Below, piece by piece: positions 8,825-33,101 of a stretch of 37,387 bases of DNA (position 1 is its first letter; each line of letters begins with the position of its first letter). This stretch comes from an uncultured Desulfobacter sp. GTDB lineage: Bacteria > Desulfobacterota > Desulfobacteria > Desulfobacterales > UBA2156. The notes beneath the pieces were generated by a model that saw only the letters and a program-made list of their open reading frames with translations, was not told where the DNA came from and searched no databases. The stretch lies in contig CAZSON010000002.1 in NCBI GenBank assembly GCA_964608375.1, positions 1-37,387 on the forward strand, in the 5' to 3' direction. The position numbers were made by a program, and so were the translations under genes.

Positions 8825-9763
8825 TTATCTCCCGTGATACTTCTCTTCAAATGTTTTAACCAGGTTGGTCATGGCCACATAAAAGGGTGTCGGGACTCCA
8901 TTTGCACGAGCATAATCTACTATCTTTCCCCCCAAAAAATCTATTTCTGTCGGTTTATTATTTGCGATGTCATGGCACATGGAGTCTTTGTGGCTGCCGA
9001 CCTTGTCTAGGTATTCGAGGGTCTGTTTAAGATAATCTTCCCCCAGGTCATAACCGACCGCCTTTGAAACAGCCATGGCCTCTTGAAAACAAGCATTTGC
9101 TATTTCTCTTGTGGGCGAAAAATCCAAAGCCTCTTTTATGGTCAGGTTCGTAATCGCACAAATTGAGGCCATGGTGCATTTCATGATCATTTTTTCCCAT
9201 ACATAACGCCTGATGTCATTGACGAATTCCGTCTCCAACCCGCAATCGGTAAGCATTTTGGCAATCTGAAACCCCAGGCCTCGATTCTTTTGGGCAAATT
9301 CTCCGATATGGTTGGGCCGGTTGAAAAAGGCCGCTGTCGCGACCCCCGGGTTTTTCAATGAAACTCCAAAATTCAGTGATACTCGGAAGACGGCTTCGGG
9401 GCCGAACCTGTCCGCCACAAGGTCTTCCGGTCCCAGGCCATTTTGCATGGAAATAATCTTCATTCCGGGACGATAAATTGTTTCAAGTTCATCAAGGACT
9501 TTTTTGAGGTGAAAAGTCTTTGTGGAAAGAAAAATAAGCGTTGGGTCAAAGTAACCCAACGCGTCAATCCGGCTGGAAAAATTTTTAACCGCTCCCTTGA
9601 AAGTCAAAGCTCCTGTAACTGTGATACCTTCTTTTTTGAGTATCTCACCCTGTTCAACCTTGCGACCGATAAGAACGGTTTCCGGGTATTTTCCGAGCAG
9701 TGCGGCCGCCAGCACACAACCGGTAGCCCCAATCCCCACAACCGCCATCCGGTGTTCTTCCAT
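8825..9763 (-). CDS. panE: 2-dehydropantoate 2-reductase (ketopantoate reductase, ApbA/PanE family)
   Basis: Rossmann motif VVGIGATGCVLAAALL and 312 aa length. The C-terminal part (SMCHDIANNKPTEIDFLGGKIV) matches the PanE signature. Confidence 0.75.
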   Translation of the reverse strand: MEEHRMAVVGIGATGCVLAAALLGKYPETVLIGRKVEQGEILKKEGITVTGALTFKGAVKNFSSRIDALGYFDPTLIFLSTKTFHLKKVLDELETIYRPGMKIISMQNGLGPEDLVADRFGPEAVFRVSLNFGVSLKNPGVATAAFFNRPNHIGEFAQKNRGLGFQIAKMLTDCGLETEFVNDIRRYVWEKMIMKCTMASICAITNLTIKEALDFSPTREIANACFQEAMAVSKAVGYDLGEDYLKQTLEYLDKVGSHKDSMCHDIANNKPTEIDFLGGKIVDYARANGVPTPFYVAMTNLVKTFEEKYHGR

Positions 9764-9889
9764 GTTGTTTTTCCTTACTTTTAACCGGTTCGTTTATCTG
9801 TTAATACGAATTTGAAACAAATGGCTGTCTCTCTCATAATAAGGCAGGTAGAAGCTTTCATCAAGGTCAAGTTCATATGAGTAATGTTT

Positions 9890-10885
9890 TTATGCAATGG
9901 CATTAAGGCGCTGATCGGATATCTTCTGTAAATCATTTAGGTATGATTTGATCAATTGTAACGTTTCATCTTCAGATGCAATTTGCTTTATCGATTCCCG
10001 GAACTTGCTGCTGCGCGGGAGTCCTTTTACAAACCAGCCGAGACGGCTGCGCATCATATAACACCCCCGCTTTTCACCCTGGCATCTTATGGTGGATTCC
10101 ACATATTGTTTCATAATTTCAAACCGCTGGTCAAGGCTCACAGATGGGATTTCCTCACCCCGAAAACAGGACAGTATTTGGAAAAATATCCATGGATTTC
10201 CGATTGCCCCCCTGCCGATCATCACTCCGTCACATCCGGTCGTCTTTTGCATCAAAATCGCATCTGCCGCCCCTTTGATGTCTCCGTTTCCGATGACCGG
10301 TAAGGATACCGTTTTTTTTATTTTTTCGATAATGGTCCAGTCAGCGGTTCCGCCAAACCCCTGGATAGCGGTCCGTGGATGGATAGTGACGGCATCTACT
10401 CCGCATGCATCGGCAATTTCAGCAATGTGAAGGGCCTGGTTACCGGACCGGTCCCATCCGGATCTCATTTTTACGGTCAGGGGAATGGTTATCGATTTTC
10501 GAACCGCCTTTATCAGAGCCTCCACCTTTTTGGGCGTATCCATCAGAGCCACGCCCGCTCCGGTTTTGATCACCTTTTTGACCGGGCAGCCAAGATTAAT
10601 ATCGAGTATACTGGCGCCTTTTGATTCAACGATAAGAGCCGCTTCAGCCATAATGTCAGGATCTGAGCCAAAAAGCTGAATGGAGAGCGGTTTTTCTTTT
10701 GGATCACTGCTCAGCATCTTCTCGGTCTTTTCCGATTTTTGAACCAGGCCGTGGGCACTGATCATCTCTGAACAGACCAAGGCACATCCCATCTCCCTGG
10801 CCAACAGCCGAAATGGAAGATTGGATATTCCGGAAAGCGGTGCCATAACCAGGTTATTATCTAAAAGAAGGGCGCCGATTCTCAT
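9890..10885 (-). CDS. dusB: tRNA-dihydrouridine synthase (DusB-like)
   Basis: MAPLSGISNLPFRLLAREMG, DINLGCPVKKV, and HPRT…G…ADW motifs of the Dus family. Confidence 0.88.
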   Translation of the reverse strand: MRIGALLLDNNLVMAPLSGISNLPFRLLAREMGCALVCSEMISAHGLVQKSEKTEKMLSSDPKEKPLSIQLFGSDPDIMAEAALIVESKGASILDINLGCPVKKVIKTGAGVALMDTPKKVEALIKAVRKSITIPLTVKMRSGWDRSGNQALHIAEIADACGVDAVTIHPRTAIQGFGGTADWTIIEKIKKTVSLPVIGNGDIKGAADAILMQKTTGCDGVMIGRGAIGNPWIFFQILSCFRGEEIPSVSLDQRFEIMKQYVESTIRCQGEKRGCYMMRSRLGWFVKGLPRSSKFRESIKQIASEDETLQLIKSYLNDLQKISDQRLNAIA

Positions 10886-10910
10886 TCATGCACCTGTCCG
10901 ACGATATTTT

Positions 10911-11795
10911 CTAAATAGAGGGGTTTGCATAACAGAAAAGACAGTTATGATGGCACGGTTGCATGTGATAAGATCCAATATCAACCGAGACCATGCATCC
11001 GCACCCCTTGTTTATCCGCTGACCCGCATCTTTTTTCAAAGAAAGACAGCCGCCAAAAATTCTAATAAGCAGATCGTTTGGGATGCAAGCGCTTTGTGTG
11101 ATGGCCGATGATGCGGGCAGAACATTGATGATCCTTTTTTCACAACATGTCTGAAGTTGTATGTTTTTCCCTTTAAGCTCCTGCTCCATCGCAAGCAAAA
11201 CCTTTTTTTTCTTTTCGATGCCGGGATCGACGAATGAAAATCCGGGTATGGATTCGTTTATTTTTCGGACCCGTTTTTGAATTTTCGGATAATCATCCAT
11301 AAAACTGGTGATACACCTTGAGATTCCGTTTTGGGCGGCTCTATGGGCGATGCGCGGAAAATCATCGAAATTGTCCCGTATTCCTCTTTTTTCTGTCTGA
11401 TAAAAACAGATGGGGTCAAATCTCCAGGTAATAGTCTCAGGTGCAAAACGATCAGTCAAGACGTCCAGTTGATCGAGGCGTTTTTCCAGGGGTGGAACAT
11501 TCGGCTCAAGCCGTGGGGAATCCGAGTTGAGGGTAAAGTTAAAAAAGAGATGGTATCCCATCTCTTTCAGTCTATCGCCATACCCTTCATTTATGAAAGG
11601 ATCAAAATTTTTTGACCAAAATACGATAGTGTGGACTTTTTCGGGTGTTGATGGCAGGATGGATACACGCTTGTTGTAAGGATTGGTAATTTCAAATATT
11701 CCCTTTTCAATCTGCTTCATAAACCATTTCATATAAAAGGCAGGGATATCGGTCCTTCTGGAAGCAGAGATTACGATGCGGGTGGGAGATTCCAT
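10911..11795 (-). CDS. DUF1848 domain protein (uncharacterised, C-terminal CX3CX2C cysteine cluster)
   Basis: ISASRRTDIPAFYMKWF N-terminus is typical of DUF1848. The C-terminus GCGCMVSVDIGSYHMQPCHHNCLFCYANP contains a radical-SAM-like CxxxCxxC. Confidence 0.7.
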   Translation of the reverse strand: MESPTRIVISASRRTDIPAFYMKWFMKQIEKGIFEITNPYNKRVSILPSTPEKVHTIVFWSKNFDPFINEGYGDRLKEMGYHLFFNFTLNSDSPRLEPNVPPLEKRLDQLDVLTDRFAPETITWRFDPICFYQTEKRGIRDNFDDFPRIAHRAAQNGISRCITSFMDDYPKIQKRVRKINESIPGFSFVDPGIEKKKKVLLAMEQELKGKNIQLQTCCEKRIINVLPASSAITQSACIPNDLLIRIFGGCLSLKKDAGQRINKGCGCMVSVDIGSYHMQPCHHNCLFCYANPSI

Positions 11796-12142
11796 CAGTT
11801 ATTTTTTTTCATCTTTTTCAGTGATATCACCTTTGCGGAGTGTGAACCGTTTTTCGGGAATTTTTTTTTCAAAGATGTGTCTTCTTTTTTTGAATTTTCC
11901 GGACATATTACCCTTTCCAGCTTTATTTTTTTCCCATCCATAGTAAAGGTATCACCGTTAATATAGGAATCTCTTAAAATCCAGGTCACGCTCTGGAGCG
12001 GCAGCTGCAAAAAAAGCAATTTTACATGGTACCAGCCTGCTTTTATATCCGGAAAAATCTCTTCAATTCTGGCAAAAACAAGCGGTTTCTCTTCAACATA
12101 TAGCAGTACAATATCGTTTTCCTGTGACATCTTCTGGATCAC
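11795..12142 (-). CDS. Hypothetical protein, 115 aa, with a Lys-rich tail
   Basis: ORF whose TGA overlaps the DUF1848 ATG (ATGA at 11793-11797). I recognise no motifs. Confidence 0.45.
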   Translation of the reverse strand: MIQKMSQENDIVLLYVEEKPLVFARIEEIFPDIKAGWYHVKLLFLQLPLQSVTWILRDSYINGDTFTMDGKKIKLERVICPENSKKEDTSLKKKFPKNGSHSAKVISLKKMKKNN

Positions 12143-12183
12143 CTCTTTATCTAAGCCCGGTTTGAACAGGATTCAAAACGGTT

Positions 12184-13272
12184 TTATCCGTATTTTTTTT
12201 CAAATGCCCTCATAAAATCGACCAGGGCGGAGACCGCCTCAACCGAGGTAGGATTATAAATCGATGCCCGGCACCCGCCTACAGATCGGTGTCCCTTAAG
12301 ACCACCCAGACCGTTTTCCAAGGCGTTTTGGACAAATATCGCCTCCAGATCTTCATTGGGTAGGCGAAAAGTAATGTTCATCATCGAACGGCTTTCCGGC
12401 ATTGCCGTACCTCTGTAAAAACCGCTCCCATCGATTACGCTGTATAAAAGTTCCGCCTTTTTACGATTGATCTGTTCCATTTTTCCAAGACCACCGATGG
12501 TTTCCTCCAACCACTTCAGTACCAGGTGGATCACATAGATGCCAAAACAGGGCGGCGTGTTATAGAGCGAGTTTTTTTCAACAAAACTGGTGTACTTTAG
12601 CATCGTCGGCAGATGATCCGGTACACGTTCGAGCATATCGTCTCTAACAACGACCATACACACCCCTGCTGGTCCTATATTCTTCTGAGCACCGGCATAG
12701 ATCAATCCGAATTTCTCCAGGTCAAAGGCTCTCCAAAAAATATCTGAGGACATGTCTGCGATCAGCGGAACATCATCTGTATCCGGGAACGACGACCACT
12801 GGGTACCTTTAATGGTATTGTTTGATGTAATGTGGCAGTAGACTGCATTGCTGCTGCATTGAATATCCTTCGGAATATAAGAAAAATTCTTATCTTCCGA
12901 TGATGCTATCACGTTCACGCGTTTCTGCTGTATCCTTGCCTCTGTAATCGCCTTTGTCGACCAGTTTCCGGTATTAATGTAATCCGCCGGGGTTTCCCCA
13001 TTTAAAAAATTCATCGGAATCATGCAAAATTGCATGCTGGCGCCCCCTTGGAGGAAAAGAACATGAAATTTTTCGTCCAGCTTGAGAATGCGCCTTACCC
13101 TGGCGATGGCATCCTCTATGACATCTTTAAACCATTTGGATCTGTGGCTGATCTCAATAATCGACATCCCGGATCCGGCGAAATTGAAAAACGAACCTTG
13201 GATTTCTTCCAAAACAGGAAAAGGAAGTGCAGCAGGCCCTGCATTGAAATTATATATTCTTTTTCTCTTCAT
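12184..13272 (-). CDS. serC: Phosphoserine aminotransferase
   Basis: YNFNAGPAALP N-terminus, 362 aa, and overall SerC pattern (…IYAGAQKNIGPAG…). Confidence 0.92.
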   Translation of the reverse strand: MKRKRIYNFNAGPAALPFPVLEEIQGSFFNFAGSGMSIIEISHRSKWFKDVIEDAIARVRRILKLDEKFHVLFLQGGASMQFCMIPMNFLNGETPADYINTGNWSTKAITEARIQQKRVNVIASSEDKNFSYIPKDIQCSSNAVYCHITSNNTIKGTQWSSFPDTDDVPLIADMSSDIFWRAFDLEKFGLIYAGAQKNIGPAGVCMVVVRDDMLERVPDHLPTMLKYTSFVEKNSLYNTPPCFGIYVIHLVLKWLEETIGGLGKMEQINRKKAELLYSVIDGSGFYRGTAMPESRSMMNITFRLPNEDLEAIFVQNALENGLGGLKGHRSVGGCRASIYNPTSVEAVSALVDFMRAFEKKYG

Positions 13273-13581
13273 CTATTTTCTCCATATTGAATCAAAACTG
13301 ATGTGTCTGGTTTCCTTAAGCGAATCCACCGGATCACGAACCATGGTTTATCCCCGACAGGTGTGGAGCGCATCCATCTATTCAGATATGAAAAATATGT
13401 CAACGGAAAATTTAAAGAGACATTGATGACGCTTCGTGTTGACAAGGAACCCTGATTGAAAATAAACTTTAAAAGATAAATGCAAAACGAACCTGTTTGA
13501 ACACCGTTTCAGCCGACATTGCATCGCTACCTTAGATCCTGCAATATAGGTATAGATCCTAAAAAAAGAAAGCGCATAAAA

Positions 13582-14929: not shown

Positions 14930-16027
14930 TTAATAAATCGATTTAGTAGACGCGGCGTCGAAGATATGAAGGTGATTGAGGTTGAAAGCCAGTTTTGTCT
15001 TCTCTTTGGGATGCACAGCCCTTCTTCCCTCGCATTTTCCGATTATCTTCAAACCTCCGGTGTCAAGGTGCATATAGGTTTCGCTGCCTAAAGGCTCGGT
15101 AACTACTATTTCGGCGTCAAACTTCCAGTCGTCCGGTATATCGTTGCGAGCCTCCTCTAAAAAAATATCCTCCGCGCGCAGTCCCATCACAATTTTTTGT
15201 CCCTCACTAATTTTAGCGTCAGGTTTATCGGGAATCGGCAGTTTAAATCCAGCTGGGAAACTAATGCTTAGTTTTTCGTCGTTTTTGTTAATCGTCCCAT
15301 CGATCAGGTTCATAGGCGGACTTCCAATAAATCCCGCCACAAACGTATTCACCGGATTCTGGAAAAGCTCGATAGGATCCCCGACCTGTTCAATATAACC
15401 ATCTTTCAAAACGACAATTCGGTCACCCAATGTCATGGCTTCCACCTGATCGTGTGTTACATATATGATAGTGTTTTTCACTCGTTGATGGAGTTGTTTG
15501 ATCTCCACTCGCATTTGGGTTCTTAGTTTAGCGTCAAGATTTGATAGAGGTTCATCAAAAAGAAAAATATCCGGATTCCGGACAATGGCTCTTCCCATCG
15601 CCACTCTTTGTCGTTGACCACCGGATAGCTCGGATGGTTTTCTGTTGAGGAGTTCCTCAATATTTAAAATCCTGGCAGCGTTATTCACCCTTTCCCTGAT
15701 TTCAGGTTTGGGTACTTTTTGGAGTTTTAACGCAAACGACATATTGTCAAAAACATTCATGTGAGGATACAAAGCATAGTTCTGAAATACCATCGCGATG
15801 TTTCGATCTTTGGGCAGGATGTTATTCACCACGCGATTGCCAATCACGATCTCTCCTCCGGTTATTTCCTCAAGGCCCGCAATCATGCGAAGCGTAGTAG
15901 ATTTACCACATCCCGAAGGACCCACCAAAACGATAAACTCATCGTCTTTAATCGCGAGATTGATAGAATGTACTACTTCATGTTCGCCAAACTTTTTAAC
16001 TAGGTTTTTTAATGCTATGGTCGTCAT
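14930..16027 (-). CDS. ABC transporter ATP-binding protein, MalK/UgpC/MsmK type (CUT1 sugar importer ATPase with C-terminal TOBE-like domain)
   Basis: Walker [10 protein letters not shown], signature [14 protein letters not shown], Walker [13 protein letters not shown], and a 365-aa length that includes a regulatory C-terminal domain. Confidence 0.9.
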
Positions 16028-16197
16028 AAGATCTCTCCGGAAGCGATCACGGTTCCGGTTTCTCTGTTTCCGCTTTTTAATCGAATTGCCATAATGGCAT
16101 CGGCGCCATCTTGTATTGCCTCCAAAAAGGCCACAGCACCAAAGATCACTCGTTTACTTTTGTAACCTGTCCGACCAAATATCTTTTCTGTAATCAT
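16024..16197 (-). CDS. Small protein, 57 aa, possibly TOBE/Mop-like
   Basis: [63 protein letters not shown] lies 5 nt upstream, and the stop overlaps the ATPase start (ATGA at 16024-16027). The longer track ORF (to 16329) is probably an over-extension. The TOBE/Mop resemblance is from memory only. Confidence 0.45.
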
Positions 16198-16391: not shown

Positions 16392-18206
16392 ATGAAGGAG
16401 GATATAAAAGATTTTGAAATGCAAGCTGCGAGAAACCTGCTTCAGGGGGAATTGCCAAAAATTGGCATTCGTCCTACTATCGATGGACGTCTGGGAGGGG
16501 TTCGAGAGTCACTTGAAGCCCAGACAAGACATATGGCGTTGAATGTTGCCCGCTTTTTATCCGACAACTTGAGACACCCTGATGGAAGCCCGGTCGAATG
16601 TGTGGTGGCTGACAGGTCTATCGGCGGAGTGGCTGAATCGATAATGGCGGCTGAAAATTTCAGACAAAAAAACGTGGGGGTATCCATAACAACAACACCG
16701 TGTTGGTGCTATGGCAGCGAAACGATGGAAATGGATCCCAGCATTCCCAAAGCCATATGGGGATTTAATGGCACGGAACGGCCTGGTGCGGTTTATTTGG
16801 CGGCAGCTTTAGCCGCCCATAACCAAAAAGGCTTGCCGGCATTCAGCATTTACGGCAGGCATGTTCAGGATGCCGGAGATACTGAAATTCATGAAGATGT
16901 CCAGGACAAGCTGATTTCTTTCGCAAAATCCGGTTTGGCGGTAGCCACCCTGAGAAATAAATCCTATTTGTCTATGGGCTCTGTTTCCATGGGAATCGCC
17001 GGTTCAATCGTAAACGAAAATTTTTTCCAGGAATATCTCGGAATGAGAAACGAATACGTCGATATGAGCGAGTTTACCAGACGAATCGCGGAGAAGATTT
17101 ATGACACTCAGGAATTTGAATTTGCTTTGGGTTGGGTAAAGAAATACTGCAAGGAAGGTCCGGATGAAAACCCTCCTTCTACCCGGAAGTCACGAGCCGA
17201 AAAAGATCTGGAATGGGAAACGGTCGTTAAGATGACGATGATTGCCCGGGATTTGATGGTTGGCAATCCAAAATTGACTGACCTGGGGTATGGAGAGGAA
17301 GGACTGGGACGTAATGCGATTTTATCCGGTTTCCAGGGGCAACGACAGTGGACCGATTATTTTCCGAACGGCGATTTTATGGAAGCAATATTGAACTCTT
17401 CATTTGACTGGAACGGTATCAGGCAGCCGTACCTGGTAGCGACTGAAAATGACTCCTTAAACGGAGTTTCCATGCTATTCGGCCATCTTCTGACCGGTAC
17501 GGCACAGGTGTTCTCGGATGTGCGGACGTACTGGAGCCCGGAGGCGGTAAAACGCGTAACCGGAAAAGAGCTGGAAGGCAAAGTTCAAAATGGTATTATT
17601 CATCTGATAAATTCCGGCTCGTCCGCTCTGGATGGTTCAGGTGAACAGATGGTTAACGGCAATCCAGCGATTAAACCATATTGGAAAATCACCTCAGAAG
17701 AAGCAATTCGGTGTTTAGAGGCGACCTCTTGGTGTCCTGCAATTAGAGACTATTTTAGGGGTGGTGGCTATTCCTCCAAATTTGTAACAAGAGGGGGGAT
17801 GCCGATAACGATGTCGAGAATAAACCTGATAAAAGGAGTGGGTCCTGTGATGCAAATCGCCGAAGGTGAAACAGTGGAGCTACCGAGAGATATGCATGAT
17901 ATTTTGGATCAACGCACCAACATCACCTGGCCGACAACCTGGTTTGTTCCGAGGCTGACGGGCCGGGGAGCATTCAGGGATGTATATTCGGTTATGGCTA
18001 ACTGGGGAGCGAATCATGCTGCTTACAGTTATGGCCATATCGGGGCGCAGTTAATTACTTTGGCTTCGATGCTGCGCATTCCGATCTGCATGCATAATGT
18101 TCCCACGGAGAAGATCTATCGACCGAGCGTCTGGGGCGCCTTCGGCATGGATTCAGAAGGATCCGATTATCGGGCTTGCGCTAACTTTGGTCCTTTATAT
18201 GGATAG
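16392..18206 (+). CDS. fucI: L-fucose isomerase
   Basis: Near-colinear with my recollection of E. coli FucI: [99 protein letters not shown] and [16 protein letters not shown] precedes the ATG at 16392 (alternative ATG at 16386). Confidence 0.95.
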
Positions 18207-18293: not shown

Positions 18294-19769
18294 ATGATAA
18301 CTCAATATGACATCAACTCCCAATTCCTCGCTTTGGATTTCGGAGCTGAAAGCGGGCGCGGTGAACTCATTACACTGTGTGAAAATAAGATTTACATTGA
18401 AGAAATCCATCGTTTTCCCAACAGACCGGTAAATCTCTGCCGAACGCTATGCTGGGATTTCCCTTTTCTTTTTGCGGAATTGCTAACAACCTTGCGAGTG
18501 TGTGCAGATAAAAACCTGTCTTTAACCGGAATTGGCATCAGTACCTGGGGTGTTGATTTTGGTTTGCTGGGAGAAGATGGGAAAATCCTGGCCAATCCGG
18601 TTCATTATCGTGATGCGCGCACAGATAAAATCGATGAATATTCGGACTTAATCATGTCCAAAGATGAGATATTCGCGGCGACAGGGTGTGAACCATGGAA
18701 TATCAGCTCGTTATTTCAATTATTAGCGATGCAGAGAGACCATTCTCCCATCCTGAAAATGGCCTGTTCTTTTTTGAATATGCCCGACCTGTTTAATTAC
18801 TGCTTGACCGGGAAAAAAGTCTCAGAGCGTTCTATCGCAAGTACCTCTAATTTAATGCAAATAGATGGCGATTGGTGTCGGAATATCATTCACCAATTCC
18901 AATTACCCGACATTTTTGAAGAACTGGTTGAACCGGGATCGGTAATTGGCAACATGAGCCCTGAAATCGCCCCCCAGCCAAATATGGCAAATGTTCCGGT
19001 CATTGCAACCTGCAGCCATGACACGGCTGCTGTAGCGGCCGCCGTACCTGCGAGCGGAGACAATTGGGCTTTTTTAAGTTCGGGAACCTGGAGTATTCTG
19101 GGCAGGCTTCGCAGCGAGCCGGTCACGACCCCGGAATTCCTGGAGAACGGATTTAGTAATGAATATACGCTCGGCGGTTGGTTTTTGTGCCGCAATATTA
19201 TAGGTCTTTGGTTGATACAAGAGCTTTACCGCAAGTGGGATACATCAGCCGATCCCTGGAACTACAAGCGGATGATGGAAGAAGCTTCCCAAGCCAAATC
19301 CGGACTCATAATAGATGTTGCCGATAAGTGTTTGCTGGCGCCGGATGATATGGAAGAATCCCTGTTGGATTTAACGCGCCGTTTTCAACAGCATTTACCA
19401 GATTCCCGCGGAGAACTGATCAGGTGTGTACTTGAAAGCCTGGCGCTTGAGTATGCTTATCGCTTGGAATTATTGTGCGCTCTGAGTAAGGAACAAGTGG
19501 ATTCATTATTCCTGGTAGGCGGAGGAATCGCCAATAAACTACTTTGCCAGTTAACGGCCAACGCATGTCAAATACCGGTATACGCCGGAGCACAGCAATG
19601 TACGTCTCTAGGCAATGCCTTAACGCAAGCCTATGCCCTCGGCATAATCAAAGAACCTGGTGAAATTCGCCGCATTATGCGCAATAGTTTTGAACTTACA
19701 GCTTATGAACCGATGGATCCCTCCTTTTGGATTGACAAGCTCTTCAAGTATAAATCCTTGACCATCTAA
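18294..19769 (+). CDS. FGGY-family kinase of the rhamnulokinase (RhaB) subfamily; by context probably L-fuculokinase
   Basis: LALDFGAESGRG, GISTWGVDFGLL, HYRDARTD, ATCSHDTAAVAAAVPA, FLSSGTWSILG and NIIGLWLIQE parallel E. coli RhaB motifs. Confidence 0.85.
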   Translation: MITQYDINSQFLALDFGAESGRGELITLCENKIYIEEIHRFPNRPVNLCRTLCWDFPFLFAELLTTLRVCADKNLSLTGIGISTWGVDFGLLGEDGKILANPVHYRDARTDKIDEYSDLIMSKDEIFAATGCEPWNISSLFQLLAMQRDHSPILKMACSFLNMPDLFNYCLTGKKVSERSIASTSNLMQIDGDWCRNIIHQFQLPDIFEELVEPGSVIGNMSPEIAPQPNMANVPVIATCSHDTAAVAAAVPASGDNWAFLSSGTWSILGRLRSEPVTTPEFLENGFSNEYTLGGWFLCRNIIGLWLIQELYRKWDTSADPWNYKRMMEEASQAKSGLIIDVADKCLLAPDDMEESLLDLTRRFQQHLPDSRGELIRCVLESLALEYAYRLELLCALSKEQVDSLFLVGGGIANKLLCQLTANACQIPVYAGAQQCTSLGNALTQAYALGIIKEPGEIRRIMRNSFELTAYEPMDPSFWIDKLFKYKSLTI

Positions 19770-19798: not shown

Positions 19799-21805
19799 AT
19801 GAACTCGAAAAATCACCGATTGGCAAAAGGCTATATGAATAAAGTCCTTTATGTTAATCTTAGCAGAGAGTCATATCACTCAAAACCGATTGATCTAAAA
19901 ACCGCAGAACTGTTTTTTGGCGGCCGGGGTTTCGGAATCTGTTTTCTTTTTGAGCATTTTAAGAAACTGCAACAAGAAGGCAAATATAAGAATCCTTTTG
20001 CCGAAGTAAACCCGCTTTCACCCGACAATGTGATTGTCATCGCAACCTCACCCGCAACAGGAACCAAGATGCCGACTTCCGGAAGATTTCACATGAATTA
20101 TAAATCTCCCTTAACCGGAGCTTTGGGAAGTACCAATGCCGGAGGGCGATGGGCGGTTGAATTTAAGAAATCCGGTTATGACTTGCTGGTATTGACCGGC
20201 AAGTCTCCAAAGCCGGTCTATCTCGTGATTTCAAGTGCCGGCGTTGAGTTTGTGAAGGCCGATCCTCTCAAAGACCTGACTTCAATCGAAACCAGAACTG
20301 CCATAAAGGAAAATCTTTCCAAGAAAGCGCAAGTTCTGACCATCGGAGCAGGGGGAAAAAACCTGTCCTATTTTGCATCCGTATTGAGCGACAGAGGTAA
20401 AGCTTTTGGAAGGGGCGGGGGTGGTGCTGTTTTTGGATCAAAAAACCTCTATGCCATCGCAGTCCGTCCCGGCCAGGAAATGGCCATCGAAGTTGCCAAC
20501 GAAAAGAATTTAGAGCTTAAAAATAAAAGCGGGGCTTCTTATCAGGCCATGTTAAAACTCAATCTGGGCAAATTCACAAAAAAGGAAGAACATTTCGGAA
20601 TATTGTCTTCCATGGGGTCGTTAGGAATTTTGGGAATGGTCGACAATTTTGATCAACTTGTTCATAACAATATGCGGGATACTGATCATGACCCAGCCGA
20701 CATTAGAAAGATCAACGGTGAAGCCTTGAGAAACCACGCTAAAAACGCAAAACCAGGTGAAACTAGGATTGAGGTCAAGAGGGGTACCTGTTTTAACTGC
20801 CCGATTACATGTAAAAGAGAAACCAGGCTCATAGATGGTCAGGGGAACCTAATCGAGGCTGGCGAAGGGCCGGAATTTGAATCAACAGCGCTGATGGGGG
20901 CCAATTTATCCATATATGATCTGGCAATCATAACCCAGGCCGTTTATCTGGCAAATCATTACGGCCTCGATACCATCTCCCTGGGCGCAACCATCGCCTC
21001 GTTTTTTGAGCTTTATGATGTTATGGCTGAAAAGGCCGAAAATCTTCCACCACTTGAAAAAAAATTTTTAGAGGAAATAGAGGATTTTATTTCGCAATAT
21101 GGAACACCAGGTTTTGGAAAATCTGAATTACTGATTCCATTGGTGCACTTGATCGGCAAAGCGGAGGGAATCGGCAGGCAACTGGCAAAGGGTTCTTATC
21201 GATTCTGTGAACGTTATGGTCATAAAGAACTTTCGATGAGTGTGAAGAAACTGGAGCTGCCGGCCTACGACCCTCGAATGTCATTCAGCCAGGCGTTGTG
21301 TTATGAGATGAATAACCGGGGAGGATGTCATTTGGAAGGCGGTTACACGGCCCCGCATGCTTACTGTGCGGGTTATGCCGAATGGCCTGCCGATAGAATA
21401 GAAGGTACACCCTTGATAGCCAAAAACGCCGCCCTGAAAAACACGACCCTCGATATCATCTGTGCTTGTGCATATGGATCATTCTCATTAAATCTGGATG
21501 AATATGGTGCCTTGATCAGCGCAGTTACCGGACTTGAATACAATTCAGGAACTCTTAAAGAACTCGCCCGTCGGGTTATCACGCTGGAAAAGGTCTTTAA
21601 CATTCTGTGTGGATTGACTCGGGACGATGACTGGCTTCCGGATAGGTTTTATTCGGAAACCATCCGGGCAAAGGACTTTACGGCAATCTGCCGGCGGGAA
21701 GAATTTCAAAAAATGCACCATGAATATTATGATTCCCTCGGGTGGGACAGGAATGGCAAACCGACCGAAAAAACCTTGAAGGAATTGCAATTATTAGAAA
21801 TCTAA
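19799..21805 (+). CDS. Aldehyde:ferredoxin oxidoreductase family (tungstopterin/[4Fe-4S] AOR)
   Basis: MNKVLYVNLS…FFGGRGFG N-terminal AOR domain, GRGGGGAVFGSKNLYAIAV, a Cys motif CFNCPITCKRE, and EGPEFES. Alternative start at ATG 19835 (MNKVLYVNLS). Confidence 0.88.
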   Translation: MNSKNHRLAKGYMNKVLYVNLSRESYHSKPIDLKTAELFFGGRGFGICFLFEHFKKLQQEGKYKNPFAEVNPLSPDNVIVIATSPATGTKMPTSGRFHMNYKSPLTGALGSTNAGGRWAVEFKKSGYDLLVLTGKSPKPVYLVISSAGVEFVKADPLKDLTSIETRTAIKENLSKKAQVLTIGAGGKNLSYFASVLSDRGKAFGRGGGGAVFGSKNLYAIAVRPGQEMAIEVANEKNLELKNKSGASYQAMLKLNLGKFTKKEEHFGILSSMGSLGILGMVDNFDQLVHNNMRDTDHDPADIRKINGEALRNHAKNAKPGETRIEVKRGTCFNCPITCKRETRLIDGQGNLIEAGEGPEFESTALMGANLSIYDLAIITQAVYLANHYGLDTISLGATIASFFELYDVMAEKAENLPPLEKKFLEEIEDFISQYGTPGFGKSELLIPLVHLIGKAEGIGRQLAKGSYRFCERYGHKELSMSVKKLELPAYDPRMSFSQALCYEMNNRGGCHLEGGYTAPHAYCAGYAEWPADRIEGTPLIAKNAALKNTTLDIICACAYGSFSLNLDEYGALISAVTGLEYNSGTLKELARRVITLEKVFNILCGLTRDDDWLPDRFYSETIRAKDFTAICRREEFQKMHHEYYDSLGWDRNGKPTEKTLKELQLLEI

Positions 21806-21812
21806 GAGTCAA

Positions 21813-23237
21813 ATGGAATCAAATAAAAAGATAACTGATAATAAAGATCGTATATTTGAAAGAATACAAAAAATCGGAACGGCGATTTCCTTAGTTAACG
21901 CCAATAATACCCATAGCGGCAATCTTTCCATGCGTGATCCGTCTGATCCTGACTTATTTTATATTACCGCCAGCGGCTCGCAAGGAGGCCGTCTGATCAA
22001 ACATGATATAGTGCCTATACATTTTTCCGGAGTAAGTTGGGGAGATGCACGAGGTTCGACCGAATCAACGATTCATAGAAAGATCTTGAATATTCCAGGA
22101 GTAAATTCTGTAATTCATGCCCATTATATGCATAGCACATTTATCTCATTCGATACCAAAGATAAGCAGTTATTCCTTAGGTTTTTAGGAACCGACAGCC
22201 ATGAAAGAGAAGAATTTCTTTTTTATCCGGTTGATCTGATAGGTGCTTATTCCATTGGAGGCGTCAAGGTTGGAAGTTACGAACAACCGGTAGGATCTTG
22301 CGAGATGGAAGAAAGAATTCCTCAATACTTAGGCGAAAACATCTTAACGATTGTAAGAGGTCACGGTCCGTTTGCCAGGGGTTCTTCACCCGAAAATGCC
22401 TTTCATTACCTGAGTGTTTTAGAAAACAGCTCCATGCTGGCGATATTCCTCCGAAGAAGAGGTGTCGACATCGGTCGAATTCAAAAATCGATCATTGATT
22501 TGGGAAAAGATAAGTTTTTCCCGGTTGATCCCGGTATCTCAGAAATGAACGATTCTCCCAAATTTGAGATCAATGACCCATCTGTGCTGGAGGATTTTCG
22601 TATCAGGCTGAATTATAATTACCGCCAATCCATAGGCGCTTTTGGAACCGGATCAATGAGCCATAAGATCTCTTCAAAGGAGATGATCTTTTGTTCATTG
22701 TCTGCCGTTCCCGAAAACTTCGAGTTTCCTCTATGCCGCACCACCATCAGTTTTCGGGCGGACGATTCATTAGACTTAAGGCTACATAAGCTGATTTATC
22801 AACATACACACCAGAATTCTTGTATGATTACGTCAAGTCCACTGGCAACTGCAGAAGGTATGGCAATTTTGGCAGAGGAATATGGTATGCAAGTATTGTT
22901 AGACATCGAAACTAAAATTCCTTATCTGGCCAAAGACCATCCCGTGGTAAAGCCGATAGACGGCGAAGCTATTTACCTGAATCCCAGAGTAGGACTGGTT
23001 GACATTTCGCAGTTGACCGACATGACACCGGACAACCCGATTCTCAATATGCTCCGCTGGCATAAAGGCTGCTGCATCGTTGCCGGGTATGCCGTCATCT
23101 CAACAGGAGAAGCGACACTGGAACAAGCCGCACACAATGCGGCATCCGCCGAAAGAATAGCCAAGTTTCGTTCCGAAGTCTTTATTAATGAAAAACTGCT
23201 AAAAGGGCCGTCAGTTGAGGTGTTCGAGCCGCTGTAA
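21813..23237 (+). CDS. Tandem class II aldolase/adducin-domain protein (N-terminal domain FucA-like and intact, C-terminal domain degenerate)
   Basis: N-domain: HSGNLSMRD, STESTIHRKI, SVIHAHYMHS and VRGHGPFARG (Glu plus 3 His zinc/catalytic pattern). C-domain repeats the fold pattern (GTGSMSHKIS, DLRLHKLIY, CCIVAGYAVISTGEATLEQAAHNAASAERIAKF), but the His ligands are replaced (SCMITSSP, VAGYAV). Confidence 0.8.
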   Translation: MESNKKITDNKDRIFERIQKIGTAISLVNANNTHSGNLSMRDPSDPDLFYITASGSQGGRLIKHDIVPIHFSGVSWGDARGSTESTIHRKILNIPGVNSVIHAHYMHSTFISFDTKDKQLFLRFLGTDSHEREEFLFYPVDLIGAYSIGGVKVGSYEQPVGSCEMEERIPQYLGENILTIVRGHGPFARGSSPENAFHYLSVLENSSMLAIFLRRRGVDIGRIQKSIIDLGKDKFFPVDPGISEMNDSPKFEINDPSVLEDFRIRLNYNYRQSIGAFGTGSMSHKISSKEMIFCSLSAVPENFEFPLCRTTISFRADDSLDLRLHKLIYQHTHQNSCMITSSPLATAEGMAILAEEYGMQVLLDIETKIPYLAKDHPVVKPIDGEAIYLNPRVGLVDISQLTDMTPDNPILNMLRWHKGCCIVAGYAVISTGEATLEQAAHNAASAERIAKFRSEVFINEKLLKGPSVEVFEPL

Positions 23238-29108: not shown

Positions 29109-30764
29109 ATGATGAATGAAAAAAAGATCACTCGGCGAAGATTTATTAAGGATTCAGCAATTGCCGCAGCAGGAGTAAGCGCTCTTGCCGTGGGAACAAC
29201 CAGTGGACTGAGCCTGCTCACTCGGGAAGCCCATGCTCAGAGCAACCTGAGGACTGAAATCCTGAAAATCCCCGGGGTCGGGAAGGGTTCCCCTACCGAC
29301 TCAGACTGGCAGAAAGTTGGTGCAATGTGCTTGGGGTCCACAAAGGACAGTGTGTCTAAAGGTGAATTCAAGGGCGTAAAACTTACCTTTATGGGGCTCA
29401 ATAATCAAAACCTGCATAATTTTTTGTTTCGCGGTTTCCTGAAGCCCTGGGAGGCTTACACAGGTGCTAAAATAGACTGGATCGATCTTGCTCAGGCCGA
29501 TTACAACGCACGACTACAACAAGCAATTGCTACAGAAACGGTTGACTTCGACATCATTGAAATGGGCGCCCCGTTTGAAGGCGATGTGTGTGGAAAGGGG
29601 CTAGCCTCTGAGATGCCGGGTTGGGTCAAGCAGCAGATCCAGATGGATGATTATGTCGCTTATTTGAAAGCCCCTGTCGGGACCTGGAACGGCAAGACTT
29701 ATCGTATCTCAATCGACGGTGATTGCCATAACTTTAACTATCGTACCGACTATTTTTCTGATACGGGTTTGGCCAAAGCCTGGAAAACCGAAGGCCACGA
29801 GGGCGAATGGGAGGTTCCCAAAACCTGGCAGAAGGTTCAGGAAGTGACCAAGTTTCTGCACGGGAAGAAATTTCAAGGCATGGATGCATATGGATATCTC
29901 GATCCTGCGAAGGGCTGGGGTGGGTTCGGTTTTTACTTTTTGGAAAGCCGTGCCACCGCTTACGCGAAACACCCCGATGACAAAGCATGGCTATTCGATG
30001 CGGATACGATGAAGCCCCGGGTCAATAATCCGGCCTGGGTTCGAGCGATTCAGGATGTGATCGACGCCCTGCCCTATGAACCCCCCAATCAACTGAATGC
30101 CGATCCGGGCACTACAGCCTTCCAGCAGTTTCTGGCAGGCACCGGTTCGATGGTATCCTGGTGGGGAGATGTCGGATCCATGTGCAAGACCAGTGATTCC
30201 TCTGTTGTCGGAGATGTAACCGGGTTCTCCATCTTGCCTGGTTCAGATGATGTTTACAATTCAAAGACCGGTAAATGGGAGAAGCTCCCAAGCGGTCCAA
30301 ACTTTGCACCGAACATGGCCTACATCGGTTGGGGTGTTTACGTAATGGCAAGGGTTGACGGCGATTCGAAAAAACGCAAGGCCGCCTGGAGTGCTGCAGC
30401 CCATATTGGTGGTAAAGACATATCTCTTTGGACTGCTGCATACCCATCCGGTTTCCAGCCCTACCGTCAGAGTCACTTCAATATATCCGAGTGGGTCGCG
30501 GCCGGTTACGATAAGCCATTTATCACCTCCTATCTGAAGTCTGAAGCTGACTCATACAACCATTCCAATGCGGCGATTGAACCTCGCATCCCGGGAATTT
30601 TCCAGTACTACAGTACGGCAGAGGATGAACTGGCCCAGATATTCGCCGGTAAATACTCGGCTCAGGAAGGCGCTGACAGGATTGCGGCGGCGTGGGAGAA
30701 GCTCACCGATCAAATCGGCAGGGAAAAACAGATCAAGCTGTATAAAGCTTCGCTTGGATTATAA
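29109..30764 (+). CDS. ABC transporter substrate-binding protein (family 1, CUT1-like), unusually long (551 aa), Tat signal
   Basis: Twin-arginine signal KKITRRRFIKDSAIAAAGVSALAVG…AHAQ and a solute-binding fold pattern. AAGGAGG SD is upstream, followed by two CUT1 permease genes. Confidence 0.8.
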   Translation: MMNEKKITRRRFIKDSAIAAAGVSALAVGTTSGLSLLTREAHAQSNLRTEILKIPGVGKGSPTDSDWQKVGAMCLGSTKDSVSKGEFKGVKLTFMGLNNQNLHNFLFRGFLKPWEAYTGAKIDWIDLAQADYNARLQQAIATETVDFDIIEMGAPFEGDVCGKGLASEMPGWVKQQIQMDDYVAYLKAPVGTWNGKTYRISIDGDCHNFNYRTDYFSDTGLAKAWKTEGHEGEWEVPKTWQKVQEVTKFLHGKKFQGMDAYGYLDPAKGWGGFGFYFLESRATAYAKHPDDKAWLFDADTMKPRVNNPAWVRAIQDVIDALPYEPPNQLNADPGTTAFQQFLAGTGSMVSWWGDVGSMCKTSDSSVVGDVTGFSILPGSDDVYNSKTGKWEKLPSGPNFAPNMAYIGWGVYVMARVDGDSKKRKAAWSAAAHIGGKDISLWTAAYPSGFQPYRQSHFNISEWVAAGYDKPFITSYLKSEADSYNHSNAAIEPRIPGIFQYYSTAEDELAQIFAGKYSAQEGADRIAAAWEKLTDQIGREKQIKLYKASLGL

Positions 30765-30774
30765 TAAAATTAAT

Positions 30775-30814
30775 AACAATCGGCTGACGGAAATTACACC
30801 GTCAGCTGATTGTT
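30775..30814 (+). terminator. Strong intercistronic stem-loop after the binding-protein gene (partial terminator or mRNA stabiliser)
   Basis: AACAATCGGCTGACGG (30775-30790), loop AAATTACA, then CCGTCAGCTGATTGTT (30799-30814). This gives a 16-bp stem with one G:U pair, followed by a weak U-run (ATCTTTG). Confidence 0.55.
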
Positions 30815-31012
30815 ATCTTTGATCATCTTCGATCGCTTTTAGTTTGTCACATTTCAGGGATGGGTTGTTGGAGTCAAAGCGCTCCAATCTCTTCAGCTTT
30901 TATTTCACTGTAGACATTCAGCGTATCGATTCAAAAAGATGGATCTTTTGCCCGATCACCGCCCGCCTAACGTACTTACAAGAAGTGATTTCAAATATAG
31001 GACCAGGTTTTA

Positions 31013-32137
31013 ATGGCTAGTTCGTCAGTGCTGGATGGTCAAAAGCATTACAAAGTTGGTATCGAGGATATTTCCGTAAGTCGGAAGAGACTCGGACGGG
31101 GAATGATTTTTCTTGCCTCTCTCATTCTGGCGGTGGTTATTTTTCTTCAAATCCTGTACAAAACTGAGGCCATCACAGTAGGTTTTGATACCTGGCGCGC
31201 AATTCTTTATGCATATCTTCTTTGGGCGGTTGCCCTGGTTATTGGACAGGTGCTTATCAGAGGAGAGCTTGGCAAACGAAGCCTGTTTTTGCTGCCCGCT
31301 CTTTTATTTACTATTTCGCTGGTGATCTTTCCAACTTTTTTCGGACTGTATATATCGTTTACAGACTGGAATCTTAGTTCTTTTGAAGGCCGCCATTTCA
31401 ACGGCTTAGACAATGTTCGGGAACTCATTCAGGATACCTACTACTGGAACGCGCTAAAGAATACAGTCTATTACATTGCAACGGTGGCAGTGGAATTTGT
31501 TATTGCCTTTTCTTTAGCGTTGTTAATAAATACCCGTATCCGTGCCCGCAAGTTTTTTCGCATTGCTTTTTTGATGCCTTTCATGTTAAGTCCTGTTGCT
31601 GTCAGCTGGATGATTGGCAAGTCACTAATGGAATATCGTTTTGGCCCGGCCGCTAGTTTCGCGCGTTTTCTTGGGTGGGACACACCGGCCTTCTTCTCTA
31701 CTCCATGGCTGGCTCGATTCAGTATCGAAGTGATGGATGGATGGATGTTTATCCCATTTATGATGATCCTCCTGCTGGCAGGTCTGCAAGCCATTCCAAA
31801 GGATATTCTGGAAGCCGCCAAAATGGATGGGGCCAATGCCAGGCAGTCATTTTTAAAGGTAGTATTTCCGTTAATGGTTCCTGTTAGCATTACGGTTATA
31901 ATTCTAAGGATCATTTTCAAGTTGAAACTCGCAGATATTGTGATCAACGTGACAGCAGGAGGGCCAGGAGGGGCGACTGACACCGTCACGAGTTACATCT
32001 ACCGCGTCTATCGGGAGCGATCCAATGTTGGGTATGGCACCATGCTCGCCGAAATTTATTTAATTCTTATTATCATTTTGATGTTGACCTTATTAAGCCT
32101 GATAAACCGCTGGAGAAAAAAACGCCAGCTAGCGTAA
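31013..32137 (+). CDS. ABC sugar transporter permease (MalF/UgpA-like, extended N-terminus)
   Basis: Multiple TM helices and an EAA-loop region EAAKMDGANARQSFLKVVFPLM. The true start may be the internal Met (MIFLASL…). Confidence 0.85.
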   Translation: MASSSVLDGQKHYKVGIEDISVSRKRLGRGMIFLASLILAVVIFLQILYKTEAITVGFDTWRAILYAYLLWAVALVIGQVLIRGELGKRSLFLLPALLFTISLVIFPTFFGLYISFTDWNLSSFEGRHFNGLDNVRELIQDTYYWNALKNTVYYIATVAVEFVIAFSLALLINTRIRARKFFRIAFLMPFMLSPVAVSWMIGKSLMEYRFGPAASFARFLGWDTPAFFSTPWLARFSIEVMDGWMFIPFMMILLLAGLQAIPKDILEAAKMDGANARQSFLKVVFPLMVPVSITVIILRIIFKLKLADIVINVTAGGPGGATDTVTSYIYRVYRERSNVGYGTMLAEIYLILIIILMLTLLSLINRWRKKRQLA

Positions 32138-32177
32138 CCGGTCATTTTGTCAATCAAATTATGAATGGAGCTCTTAA

Positions 32178-33101
32178 TTGGCCTCTTCTATTATCAGGAG
32201 TCATTTCTATGACCGTGAAATAAACCGGCGGTTCAACGTCCTTTTGATCCGTATTTTCATATATTTTGGATTGCTCTTCTGGGCATTCATCTGTCTCTTT
32301 CCCGTTTACTGGACAATAACGACGACCTTTAAGGCAGCAGTCAACGTTACACAGGGCCATTTGATCCCCTGGGTTGACTTCGAACCAAAATGGATTGGAT
32401 TGCGTTCACTTGGCCTTTCGCCGGATACGATTTTTGAAATCTCAACCGTCCGGAATGAGTTCCTCAAGCGGCTTTCAAACAGCGTCATTGCTTCAATTGG
32501 CGCTTCTACCCTGGCCGTTTTGATCGGATCCCTGGCCGCATATGGCCTCACGCGTTTCCAATACAAGTTCGGCTTCTTTAAAAACAAGGATATTTCATTT
32601 TTCTTCCTGTCTCAATTGATCTTACCACCTGTTGTTTTGGCACTGCCATTTCTGGTTCTTTACAAGGAATTAGCCTTGCTTGACACCAAGGTGGGGCTCA
32701 TCCTGTTATACACACTCATGGTGTTGCCTATTGTTATCTGGATCATGCAAGATCAATTCAGCACCATCCCGATCGAGCTGGAAGAGGCGGCATTTATAGA
32801 TGGTTTATCGGTTTGGGGTGTTTTCCTGCGAATTGTAACGCCGCTCTCATTTCCCGGAATGGTAGCCTCCTTCATCCTTTGCTTCGTGCTCAGCTGGAAC
32901 GAATACTTTTTTGCCGCTTTATTGACCAGCACCAGCGCGAAAACCTTACCGGTTATGGTCGCCAGCCAAACAGGATCCCAGGGAATCAGTTGGTGGTCCA
33001 TGGCGGCGCTTTCCGGTATGGCCATTCTCCCCCTGGCGCTGATCGGACTCTTTCTTGAAAGCTACATCGTCAAAGGGCTGACCGCAGGGTCGGGGAAATA
33101 A
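32178..33101 (+). CDS. ABC sugar transporter permease (MalG/UgpE-like)
   Basis: EAA loop EEAAFIDGLSVWGVFLRIVTPL and 6 predicted TM segments. TTG start has a GGAG SD 7 nt upstream. Confidence 0.85.
   Translation: MASSIIRSHFYDREINRRFNVLLIRIFIYFGLLFWAFICLFPVYWTITTTFKAAVNVTQGHLIPWVDFEPKWIGLRSLGLSPDTIFEISTVRNEFLKRLSNSVIASIGASTLAVLIGSLAAYGLTRFQYKFGFFKNKDISFFFLSQLILPPVVLALPFLVLYKELALLDTKVGLILLYTLMVLPIVIWIMQDQFSTIPIELEEAAFIDGLSVWGVFLRIVTPLSFPGMVASFILCFVLSWNEYFFAALLTSTSAKTLPVMVASQTGSQGISWWSMAALSGMAILPLALIGLFLESYIVKGLTAGSGK

Follow-up and report, generated by a model that had tools for sequence, protein, structure and literature searches.

Contig CAZSON010000002.1 (GenBank assembly GCA_964608375.1, uncultured Desulfobacter sp., a sediment bacterium of the sulfate-reducer type), analysed here over 37,387 nucleotides (nt) and referred to below as the window, carries an L-fucose operon that includes a gene for an aldehyde:ferredoxin oxidoreductase (AOR). 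The window was scanned by comparing every open reading frame (ORF) of at least 120 amino acids (aa) with Pfam and NCBIfam models. On the plus strand fucI, the gene of an FGGY-family kinase, the AOR gene and the gene of a tandem class II aldolase, further referred to as Ald2, follow one another with gaps of 87, 29 and 7 nt; the gene order, coordinates and gaps given in the initial annotation of this DNA were matched exactly by the ORF list. The last gene had been described there as coding for a FucA-like aldolase. This stands insofar as Ald2 is a class II aldolase with a FucA-like N-terminal domain, but the protein has a tandem form and is not a plain FucA. The remark that no aldA or fucO homologue is present in the window agrees with the absence of PF00171 (AldA-type) and PF00465 (FucO-type) domains from the window ORFs of at least 120 aa, a result that covers the window only. 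We propose that the four genes probably constitute an anaerobic phosphorylative L-fucose pathway, in which the AOR would oxidise L-lactaldehyde to L-lactate with reduction of ferredoxin. The coordinates of the genes and of the motifs discussed below are collected in Table 1.

Table 1. Genes and sequence motifs of the fucose operon and its divergently transcribed neighbour (positions in the window)
Feature	Position	Strand	Basis
fucI, L-fucose isomerase, first operon gene	16392..18206	+	NCBIfam equivalogs, three Fucose_iso Pfam domains
FGGY-family ketose kinase of FucK/RhaB type, predicted L-fuculokinase	18294..19769	+	FGGY_N and FGGY_C
AOR-family aldehyde oxidoreductase, 668 aa, predicted L-lactaldehyde:ferredoxin oxidoreductase	19799..21805	+	PF02730 and PF01314
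CFNCPITC, three [4Fe-4S] cysteine ligands (C331, C334, C338) of the AOR	20789..20812	+	aligned with Cys288/291/295 of P. furiosus AOR
GPEFES, equivalent of catalytic Glu313 of P. furiosus AOR	20867..20884	+	1aor alignment; E359 and E361 invariant
GLDTIS, first pterin-binding Asp motif (D391) of the AOR	20963..20980	+	1aor alignment; D391 invariant
NNRGGCH with H511, the counterpart of catalytic His448, and after it the conserved clade-specific loop ...AYCAGYAEWP	21311..21388	+	1aor alignment
LDIICAC with D552 (second pterin-binding Asp) and C557 (fourth cysteine ligand of [4Fe-4S]) of the AOR	21449..21469	+	aligned with D489...C494 of 1aor
Tandem class II aldolase Ald2, 474 aa, predicted L-fuculose-1-phosphate (and rhamnulose-1-phosphate) aldolase	21813..23237	+	PF00596
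Catalytic core of the Ald2 N-domain: STES (E84), IHAH (H102, H104), RGHG (H184)	22056..22367	+	invariant in 59 sequences
MsmK/UgpC-type ABC ATPase, divergent from the operon	14930..16027	-	NCBIfam NF008653, 499 bits

FucI scores well above the cut-offs of the NCBIfam equivalogs NF008220 (1079 bits, cut-off 775) and TIGR01089 (1062 bits, cut-off 850). Its ORF opens upstream at a TTG codon in position 16365. Given that the FucI models match only from residue 28 of this longer ORF, and that the sequence GGAGGA lies 5 nt upstream of the ATG codon in position 16392, the latter is the likely start of the gene. The best NCBIfam match of the kinase is rhamnulokinase, RhaB (344 bits, cut-off 528), and with FucK (TIGR02628) it has 124 bits (cut-off 471); its best solved relative is the L-fuculose kinase of S. 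pneumoniae (PDB ID 4c23, 280 bits), the next one being the rhamnulokinase of E. coli (2cgj, 234 bits).

In the AOR both Pfam domains of the family score far above their cut-offs: AFOR_N (PF02730) with 202 bits (E-value 8.6e-60, cut-off 29.8) and AFOR_C (PF01314) with 303.5 bits (3.2e-90, cut-off 27). The closest sequences in PDB are the AOR of C. autoethanogenum (9g7j), that of P. furiosus (1aor), a bifurcating enzyme of the WOR1 type (9mqx), and the AOR of Aromatoleum (8c0z), with E-values from 1e-95 to 1e-80. An AlphaFold2 (AF2) model of the single chain (mean predicted local distance difference test, pLDDT, of 91) has the three-domain AOR fold. All residues of the cofactor site and the active site, that is, the four cysteines, the pterin-binding Asp motifs and the Glu and His residues, are invariant in an alignment of 46 sequences. 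The enzyme looks catalytically competent, because the Fe-S cysteines, the pterin aspartates and the equivalents of Glu313 and His448 are kept, and because the model superimposes on the four solved tungsten AORs (chains 9mqx_D, 9g7j_A, 1aor_A and 8c0z_A) with template modelling (TM) scores of 0.92–0.95 and a root-mean-square deviation of 2.2–2.8 Å at 32–33% identity. It exceeds the solved AORs in length by about 60 residues, owing to inserts that are modelled as ordered helices. Residues 523–530, following H511, are nearly invariant among the 46 sequences. They belong to a loop, HLEGGYTAPxAYCAGYAEWP (within residues 505–530), which is nearly invariant in the clade described below and at the same time is the least confident internal stretch of the model (pLDDT 62–69); it might serve as a lid, touch the cofactor or form an interface with a partner.

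A polyferredoxin (WorS-type) or other subunit gene was not found beside the AOR gene, there being no ORF with an Fe-S motif in the window, and no small-subunit cluster recurs next to the AOR across 80 loci. Since no gene for a polyferredoxin small subunit adjoins, the AOR is assigned by its sequence and gene context to the large-subunit-only enzymes, Class I as defined by Putumbaka et al. 2026 (PMC13328260), with ferredoxin as the presumed acceptor. The GAPOR, FOR, YdhV and BamB types were ruled out by scores and by the tree; in particular, the AOR has 46 bits with the GAPOR equivalog NF040818 (cut-off 1300) and 146 bits with the E. coli YdhV-type equivalog NF007354 (cut-off 868).

The place of this protein in the family was assessed with HMMER by exhaustively searching 1.84 billion representative sequences (clusters at 50% identity). 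Only one full-length representative of the AOR group was retrieved (57% identity, 878 bits). The next single protein has 41% identity and 415 bits, and all other matches have at most 39% identity and at most 319 bits (full-length ones, about 32–39% identity). A phylogenetic tree, as the initial annotation had suggested, was built for 56 AORs from the studied loci, 69 representatives and five PDB proteins. The 56 aldolase-linked AORs together with protein P0123 form a single clade (Shimodaira–Hasegawa-like support 100; stem length 0.60 substitutions per site). The five characterised enzymes from PDB fall outside, and there is no grouping of the clade with PfAOR, AaAOR or ElWOR1. Judging from these comparisons, the AOR belongs to a discrete clade, whose members are about 670 aa long and have at most 41% identity to any other AOR.

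The partner protein, Ald2, is unusual in its domain composition. A full-length search places the Aldolase_II domain (PF00596) on residues 29–209 only; when the C-terminal half is searched alone, it gives a weak match to the same domain (E-value 3e-4, 21 bits). The AF2 model of Ald2 has a pLDDT of 90.6 and a predicted TM score of 0.92. Its best structural matches are FucA structures from T. thermophilus (2flf and 2fk5, TM score 0.86), and the class II aldolase of 5-deoxyribose disposal from B. thuringiensis (6btd and 6btg) is matched as well. We take E84 and H102, H104 and H184 of the N-domain to be the counterparts of Glu73 and of the zinc ligands His92, His94 and His155 of E. coli FucA. The C-domain lacks the zinc-site histidines, yet in the alignment of 59 sequences it is conserved as strongly as the N-domain, with H325, C337, H376, D383, E385, K418, H441 and other residues being invariant. 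A decayed remnant was considered as an explanation of the C-terminal half and was ruled out by this equal conservation. The active site of FucA sits between neighbouring subunits; hence it is reasonable to regard Ald2 as a fused pseudo-dimer with one working site. It is possible that the C-domain also contacts the AOR. The fold is well studied, and its tandem architecture in Ald2 is undescribed.

The linkage of the two genes was studied in both directions. In the forward survey the AOR was searched for in one genome per species, which yielded 18 loci with orthologues at 60–93% identity; the tandem aldolase directly follows the AOR in 16 of the 16 loci having downstream sequence. The records of this survey are labelled as Desulfobacterales, SAR324, Neomarinimicrobiota, KSB1, 'Cytophagia' and unclassified bacteria. 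The AOR of Ca. Vecturithrix is likewise followed by a tandem aldolase. The reverse survey was a metagenome scan seeded with the aldolase alignment, with dereplication at 97% nucleotide identity over all loci. It produced 80 non-redundant groups, and in all 70 assessable ones the AOR gene is located directly upstream on the same strand, the identity of its product to the window protein going down to 46%. The pairwise distances between AORs correlate with those between the Ald2 proteins at r = 0.92 (n = 48), and at r = 0.96 in the kinase-bearing subset, whereas the correlation of either protein with the adjacent kinase is only 0.65. The description of the AOR as embedded in a fucose operon holds for its placement in the window, but the conserved unit is the AOR–Ald2 pair rather than a fucose operon with an AOR added.

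Related arrangements are found outside the clade. A sister AOR (P0126) is followed by a 442-aa aldolase and lies beside RhaA and a kinase; P0150 occurs in the order FucI–AOR–aldolase (475 aa)–kinase; P0129 is followed by a single-domain aldolase of 204 aa. At locus L107 (positions 7001–13437) a distant AOR with 36% identity precedes a single-domain class II aldolase of 204 aa, and a gene resembling FAD/Fe-S D-lactate/glycolate oxidases is located nearby; thus, AOR–aldolase coupling exists also with aldolases of ordinary size. The sole interruption of the pair that was seen is a gene of a PAS/methyl-accepting chemotaxis protein between AOR and Ald2 (L020:12093–13385). At locus L004 (CAZIKB010000175.1), labelled 'uncultured Cytophagia', the msmK–fucI–kinase–AOR–Ald2 genes encode proteins with 92–93% identity to those of the Desulfobacterales window, and therefore the taxonomic label of this bin is doubtful.

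Genes around the pair were counted as non-redundant groups, and only proteins with at least 60% identity were accepted as genuine FucI. An FGGY kinase accompanies the pair in 41 groups, RhaA in 12 and genuine FucI in 8; LutA/B/C proteins are encoded beside the pair in 10 groups, LarA in 3, alpha-L-fucosidase in 4 and alpha-L-rhamnosidase in 3. FucI and RhaA never occur in one locus among the surveyed loci, and within the AOR clade the locus type changes from one to the other at least three times. A model fucose locus has the order SorC regulator–fucosidase–AOR–Ald2–GH92–FucI–LutA–LutB–LutC–kinase, and a model rhamnose locus, GH1–kinase–RhaA–AOR–Ald2–LarA...rhamnosidase. When 135 further neighbours of the pair were scanned, PF00171 (AldA) and PF00465 (FucO) were both outside the 25 families seen most often.

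The phosphorylative pathways of fucose and rhamnose meet only at dihydroxyacetone phosphate (DHAP) and L-lactaldehyde, which is their sole shared aldehyde, and the product of lactaldehyde oxidation is lactate. LutABC is responsible for lactate oxidation, and LarA, for lactate racemisation. Since the FucI and RhaA contexts have only DHAP and L-lactaldehyde in common, and LutABC or LarA are encoded near the pair, the simplest reading is that the pair would turn either deoxyketose-1-phosphate into DHAP and lactate. We therefore propose that the AOR and the tandem aldolase make up a module of two genes that is complete in itself, moves horizontally and leads from deoxyketose-1-phosphate to DHAP and lactate. 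The ferredoxin-linked oxidation of lactaldehyde by the AOR, first suggested from the operon in the window, thereby gains support from comparative genomics, namely from the gene pairing, from the FucI and RhaA contexts and from the LutABC and LarA neighbours.

In the proposed pathway FucI would isomerise L-fucose to L-fuculose, the FGGY kinase would convert the latter to L-fuculose-1-phosphate, and Ald2 would cleave this compound to DHAP and L-lactaldehyde. The AOR, a putative single-subunit Class I type pyranopterin enzyme with tungsten (possibly molybdenum), would then oxidise L-lactaldehyde to L-lactate, yielding two reduced ferredoxins; the two electrons would pass by way of its [4Fe-4S] cluster to an acceptor, ferredoxin or flavodoxin, whose gene lies elsewhere. 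The comparisons establish what the genes are, which cofactor ligands are kept, how the clade is delimited, and the pairing and contexts of the genes; from these we infer the substrate, the reaction direction, the metal and the electron acceptor of this enzyme. The AOR would stand in for the textbook NAD-dependent AldA or for FucO. Acid/aldehyde couples lie near −580 mV; therefore ferredoxin-linked oxidation is feasible, and it would save the reducing power that AldA would release as NADH. Different lineages would plug the pair into FucI loci for fucose or RhaA loci for rhamnose, and the frequent extension by LutABC or LarA would lead lactate onward to pyruvate. Lactate is a standard electron donor for an organism of the Desulfobacterales type.

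Several observations weigh against this pathway. Ald2 scores far below every NCBIfam cut-off for FucA. AORs are typically broad-spectrum, and the fold implies no specificity for lactaldehyde. Tungsten and molybdenum enzymes are indistinguishable in sequence; neither a tungstate transporter nor a molybdenum or tungsten cofactor (Moco/Tuco) riboswitch is present in the window, and the ferredoxin motif CxxCxxCxxxCP occurs in none of its frames. Many loci contain the pair with no isomerase or kinase in the available sequence (e.g. L006, L007, L019 and L023), so the pair may serve further ketose-1-phosphates too. Even among close relatives of the window lineage fucI is missing from L003, L005, L025, L027 and L035–L038. 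Finally, the region is absent from the one RNA run from a matching sample; a search of sequencing runs returned only DNA-type metagenome runs (microbial mat, hydrothermal vent and marine sediment).

The fucI-less Desulfobacterales relatives have the divergent msmK gene followed by kinase, AOR and Ald2 genes in the operon orientation. One of them retains, just upstream of the kinase (L035:430–567), a 46-aa remnant of the FucI C-terminus (residues 564–604, 61% identity). Given this remnant, fucI is probably ancestral in these Desulfobacterales and was deleted in some lineages, including that of the Olavius Delta-1 symbiont type (L005).

Other proteins occupy the isomerase position in some loci. 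At L051:2570–4006 and L053:11020–12459 a protein of 570–576 aa with only 24–25% identity to FucI is encoded next to the AOR–Ald2 genes; possibly this is a divergent sugar isomerase from the FucI/AraA superfamily that differs in specificity. A xylose-isomerase-like triosephosphate isomerase (TIM) barrel protein (PF01261) is encoded directly upstream of the AOR at L042:1–513, L046:263–1171 and L048:2711–3613, in loci with neither FucI nor RhaA, and may be an isomerase or epimerase that supplies the pair instead. One more protein, 467–541 aa long and having no Pfam match, recurs by RhaA/AOR/Ald2 loci in six non-redundant loci (e.g. L018:11751–13154, L058:516–2141, L067:2760–4361 and L096:216–1721); it may be an undescribed transporter or a component of the rhamnose pathway.

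The msmK gene has the same position in L001, L003–L005, L024, L025, L027, L036 and L038, and is therefore a conserved neighbour in the Desulfobacterales lineage. In the closest relatives, L001, L004 and L055, about 0.9 kb of extra sequence separates msmK from fucI, compared with positions 16043–16075 of the window. The extra segment (L001:1051–1980), missing from the window, encodes a 290-aa ORF with weak similarity to aldo-keto reductases. Elsewhere in the window (29109–33101) an ABC binding protein, having no Pfam match at 1e-5, and two permeases are encoded with no ATPase among them; together with the orphan MsmK-type ATPase they may form a sugar importer. FucP, FucU, FucR and a fucosidase were not found in the window. 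At its 3' end the operon faces a convergent gene of the creatininase family at position 23282. A simple scan revealed no convincing internal terminator, and the counts of predicted promoters and terminators were no better than in shuffled sequence, hence uninformative. No riboswitch or other RNA upstream of the AOR gene or of the operon matched Rfam at gathering thresholds.

The fixed pairing also admits a stronger, joint reading, which we put forward only tentatively and consider rather doubtful: an obligate AOR–Ald2 complex, a tungsten-dependent breakdown of deoxysugar glycans and a superclade of aldolase-coupled AORs. If it were so, the C-domain of Ald2 would complete the active site of the N-domain and dock on the AOR, the docking surface being formed by the clade-specific inserts of the AOR and by the conserved flexible loop after His511. 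Toxic L-lactaldehyde would be channelled from the zinc site directly to that of tungsten. The superclade would be defined by aldolase coupling and would include the versions with single-domain aldolases.

Among the alternatives to the lactaldehyde pathway, one is that the pair acts mainly on another ketose-1-phosphate and hence on another aldehyde, fucose and rhamnose being only two of several feeders. The candidates are glycolaldehyde from D-ribulose-1-phosphate, formed from D-arabinose via FucI, FucK and FucA, and acetaldehyde or methylthioacetaldehyde from 5-deoxy- or 5-methylthio-ribulose-1-phosphate (the DHAP shunt). The fuc enzymes of E. coli are known to process D-arabinose as well, and the structural match of Ald2 to the aldolase of 5-deoxyribose disposal points in the same direction, as do the many loci having the pair with neither FucI nor RhaA in the available sequence and the loci with a TIM-barrel protein or a distant FucI-like protein instead. 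On the other hand, the isomerase in the window is a full-scoring FucI equivalog, the sugar-specific neighbours, wherever present, are fucosidase with FucI or rhamnosidase with RhaA, LutABC and LarA point to lactate, and no gene of the MtnK or MtnA type recurs among the neighbours. We consider this alternative improbable as a general account; it is possible for the loci lacking FucI and RhaA, where it is partly compatible with the lactaldehyde pathway, and it is not favoured in the window.

Another alternative is that the AOR is a general broad-spectrum detoxifier of aldehydes, similar to the AOR of P. furiosus and the WORs of gut bacteria, which plays no dedicated part in the pathway and is merely co-expressed with sugar catabolism, while AldA or FucO encoded elsewhere handles lactaldehyde. 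The characterised Class I AORs are indeed broad-spectrum enzymes assigned to detoxification (PMC13328260), and no substrate-specific signature is seen in the AOR sequence. However, a detoxifier without a fixed partner would not adjoin one aldolase in 70 of 70 loci, nor would it diverge together with it at r = 0.92. The AOR clade is discrete and has conserved inserts and a loop of its own, genes for lactate processing follow the pair, and no gene of the aldA or fucO type recurs near it among the 25 commonest neighbour families. Hence we regard the detoxifier as an unlikely explanation. The reverse direction, in which reduced ferredoxin would drive the reduction of lactate to lactaldehyde for the synthesis of propanediol or for the aldol synthesis of deoxyketose phosphates, has a precedent in AORs of acetogens and Thermoanaerobacter that reduce acids to aldehydes in vivo, but it is very improbable here, given that the pair is flanked by genes of catabolism (for glycosidases, isomerases, kinases and transporters), that no lactaldehyde reductase accompanies the pair among the 25 commonest neighbour families, and that the couple near −580 mV strongly favours oxidation once the aldolase supplies the aldehyde.

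The lactaldehyde pathway proposed here may be compared with several known systems. With the L-fucose pathway of E. coli it has the types of genes in common (FucI, an FGGY kinase and a class II zinc aldolase), and it would share the first three steps and the products, DHAP and L-lactaldehyde. The difference is in the last step, which in E. coli is catalysed by AldA (aerobically, with NAD) or by FucO (anaerobically, with NADH) and here would be catalysed by the AOR. In addition, the aldolase of the window has 474 aa and a tandem structure whose second domain is without metal, and the kinase is not of the E. coli FucK type.

RhaEW (B. subtilis YuxG and Chloroflexus aurantiacus Caur_2283) comes closest to this pathway in its logic; there the aldolase depends for its turnover on the lactaldehyde dehydrogenase coupled to it (Rodionova et al. 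2013, PMC3870299). RhaEW is always encoded in rha loci, and lldEFG (= lutABC) joins some rhamnose regulons (PMC3870299). In both cases a class II-like rhamnulose-1-phosphate aldolase is tightly coupled, or in the window predicted to be coupled, to the oxidation of lactaldehyde, giving DHAP and L-lactate. However, the partner in RhaEW is a fused NAD-dependent short-chain dehydrogenase, whereas here it is a separate enzyme of the AOR family, presumably linked to ferredoxin. The extra domain of Ald2 is a second aldolase fold and not a short-chain dehydrogenase, and the oxidising parts of the two systems are not homologous.

The tungsten AORs of Class I (1aor and 9g7j) have in common with the window AOR the fold (TM scores of 0.93–0.95), the Fe-S, pterin and catalytic residues, the single large subunit and the lack of an adjacent polyferredoxin gene. 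The window AOR differs from them in being only 32–37% identical and about 60 residues longer, in forming a separate long-stemmed clade and in being locked to an aldolase; the characterised Class I enzymes have no fixed pathway partner (PMC13328260). GAPOR of P. furiosus is an enzyme of the AOR family that acts on one aldehyde of a sugar pathway, replaces an NAD-dependent dehydrogenase and reduces ferredoxin (PMC13328260). Such dedication to a single aldehyde intermediate is what we propose for the window AOR, although GAPOR belongs to another clade, has another substrate and operates in archaeal glycolysis.

Lactaldehyde is linked to this family by experiment in two cases. WOR1 of Eubacterium limosum, a relative of 9mqx, oxidises it in vitro as one of many substrates (PMC11725836). 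In Desulfofundulus kuznetsovii, Adh1 and the adjacent AOR mediate alcohol oxidation, and cells growing on 1,2-propanediol form lactaldehyde and lactate (PMC13541210). Neither of these enzymes is tied to an aldolase or to the catabolism of deoxy sugars, and WOR1 is a five-subunit electron-bifurcating enzyme of Class IV.

The established fates of lactaldehyde are NAD-dependent oxidation by AldA or RhaW, reduction to propanediol by FucO or RhaZ, and processing in microcompartments. Full-text literature searches retrieved no published description of an AOR–aldolase arrangement for deoxysugars, in agreement with the initial annotation, which knew of no AOR as a step of the fucose pathway. The nearest published statement that was found is one speculative sentence about metagenome-assembled genomes (MAGs), in Williams et al. 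2022 (PMC9324843). In the June 2026 classification of WORs the words fucose, rhamnose, aldolase and lactaldehyde are absent, and a role is stated to be defined for no more than five of the 92 clades (PMC13328260); in a comparative study of rhamnose pathways there is no mention of ferredoxin or tungsten (PMC3870299). As far as the literature was searched, the proposed ferredoxin-linked conversion of lactaldehyde to lactate by a dedicated AOR is unpublished.

If the proposed pathway is correct, it would add a further and energetically better anaerobic route for lactaldehyde. The reduction of ferredoxin is possible because the aldehyde/acid couple is low enough, and the reduced ferredoxin could drive the formation of H2, ion pumping of the Rnf type or sulfate reduction. 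Annotation would improve for many MAGs, where these genes are now labelled just 'aldehyde ferredoxin oxidoreductase' and 'class II aldolase'. A whole AOR/WOR clade would gain a concrete physiological substrate and pathway, and the turnover of fucose- and rhamnose-rich glycans of algae and hosts in anoxic sediments would be tied to the supply of tungsten (or molybdenum). If the stronger, joint reading were also true, the anaerobic breakdown of fucoidan, mucin and rhamnan in marine sediments would be tungsten-dependent across several phyla.

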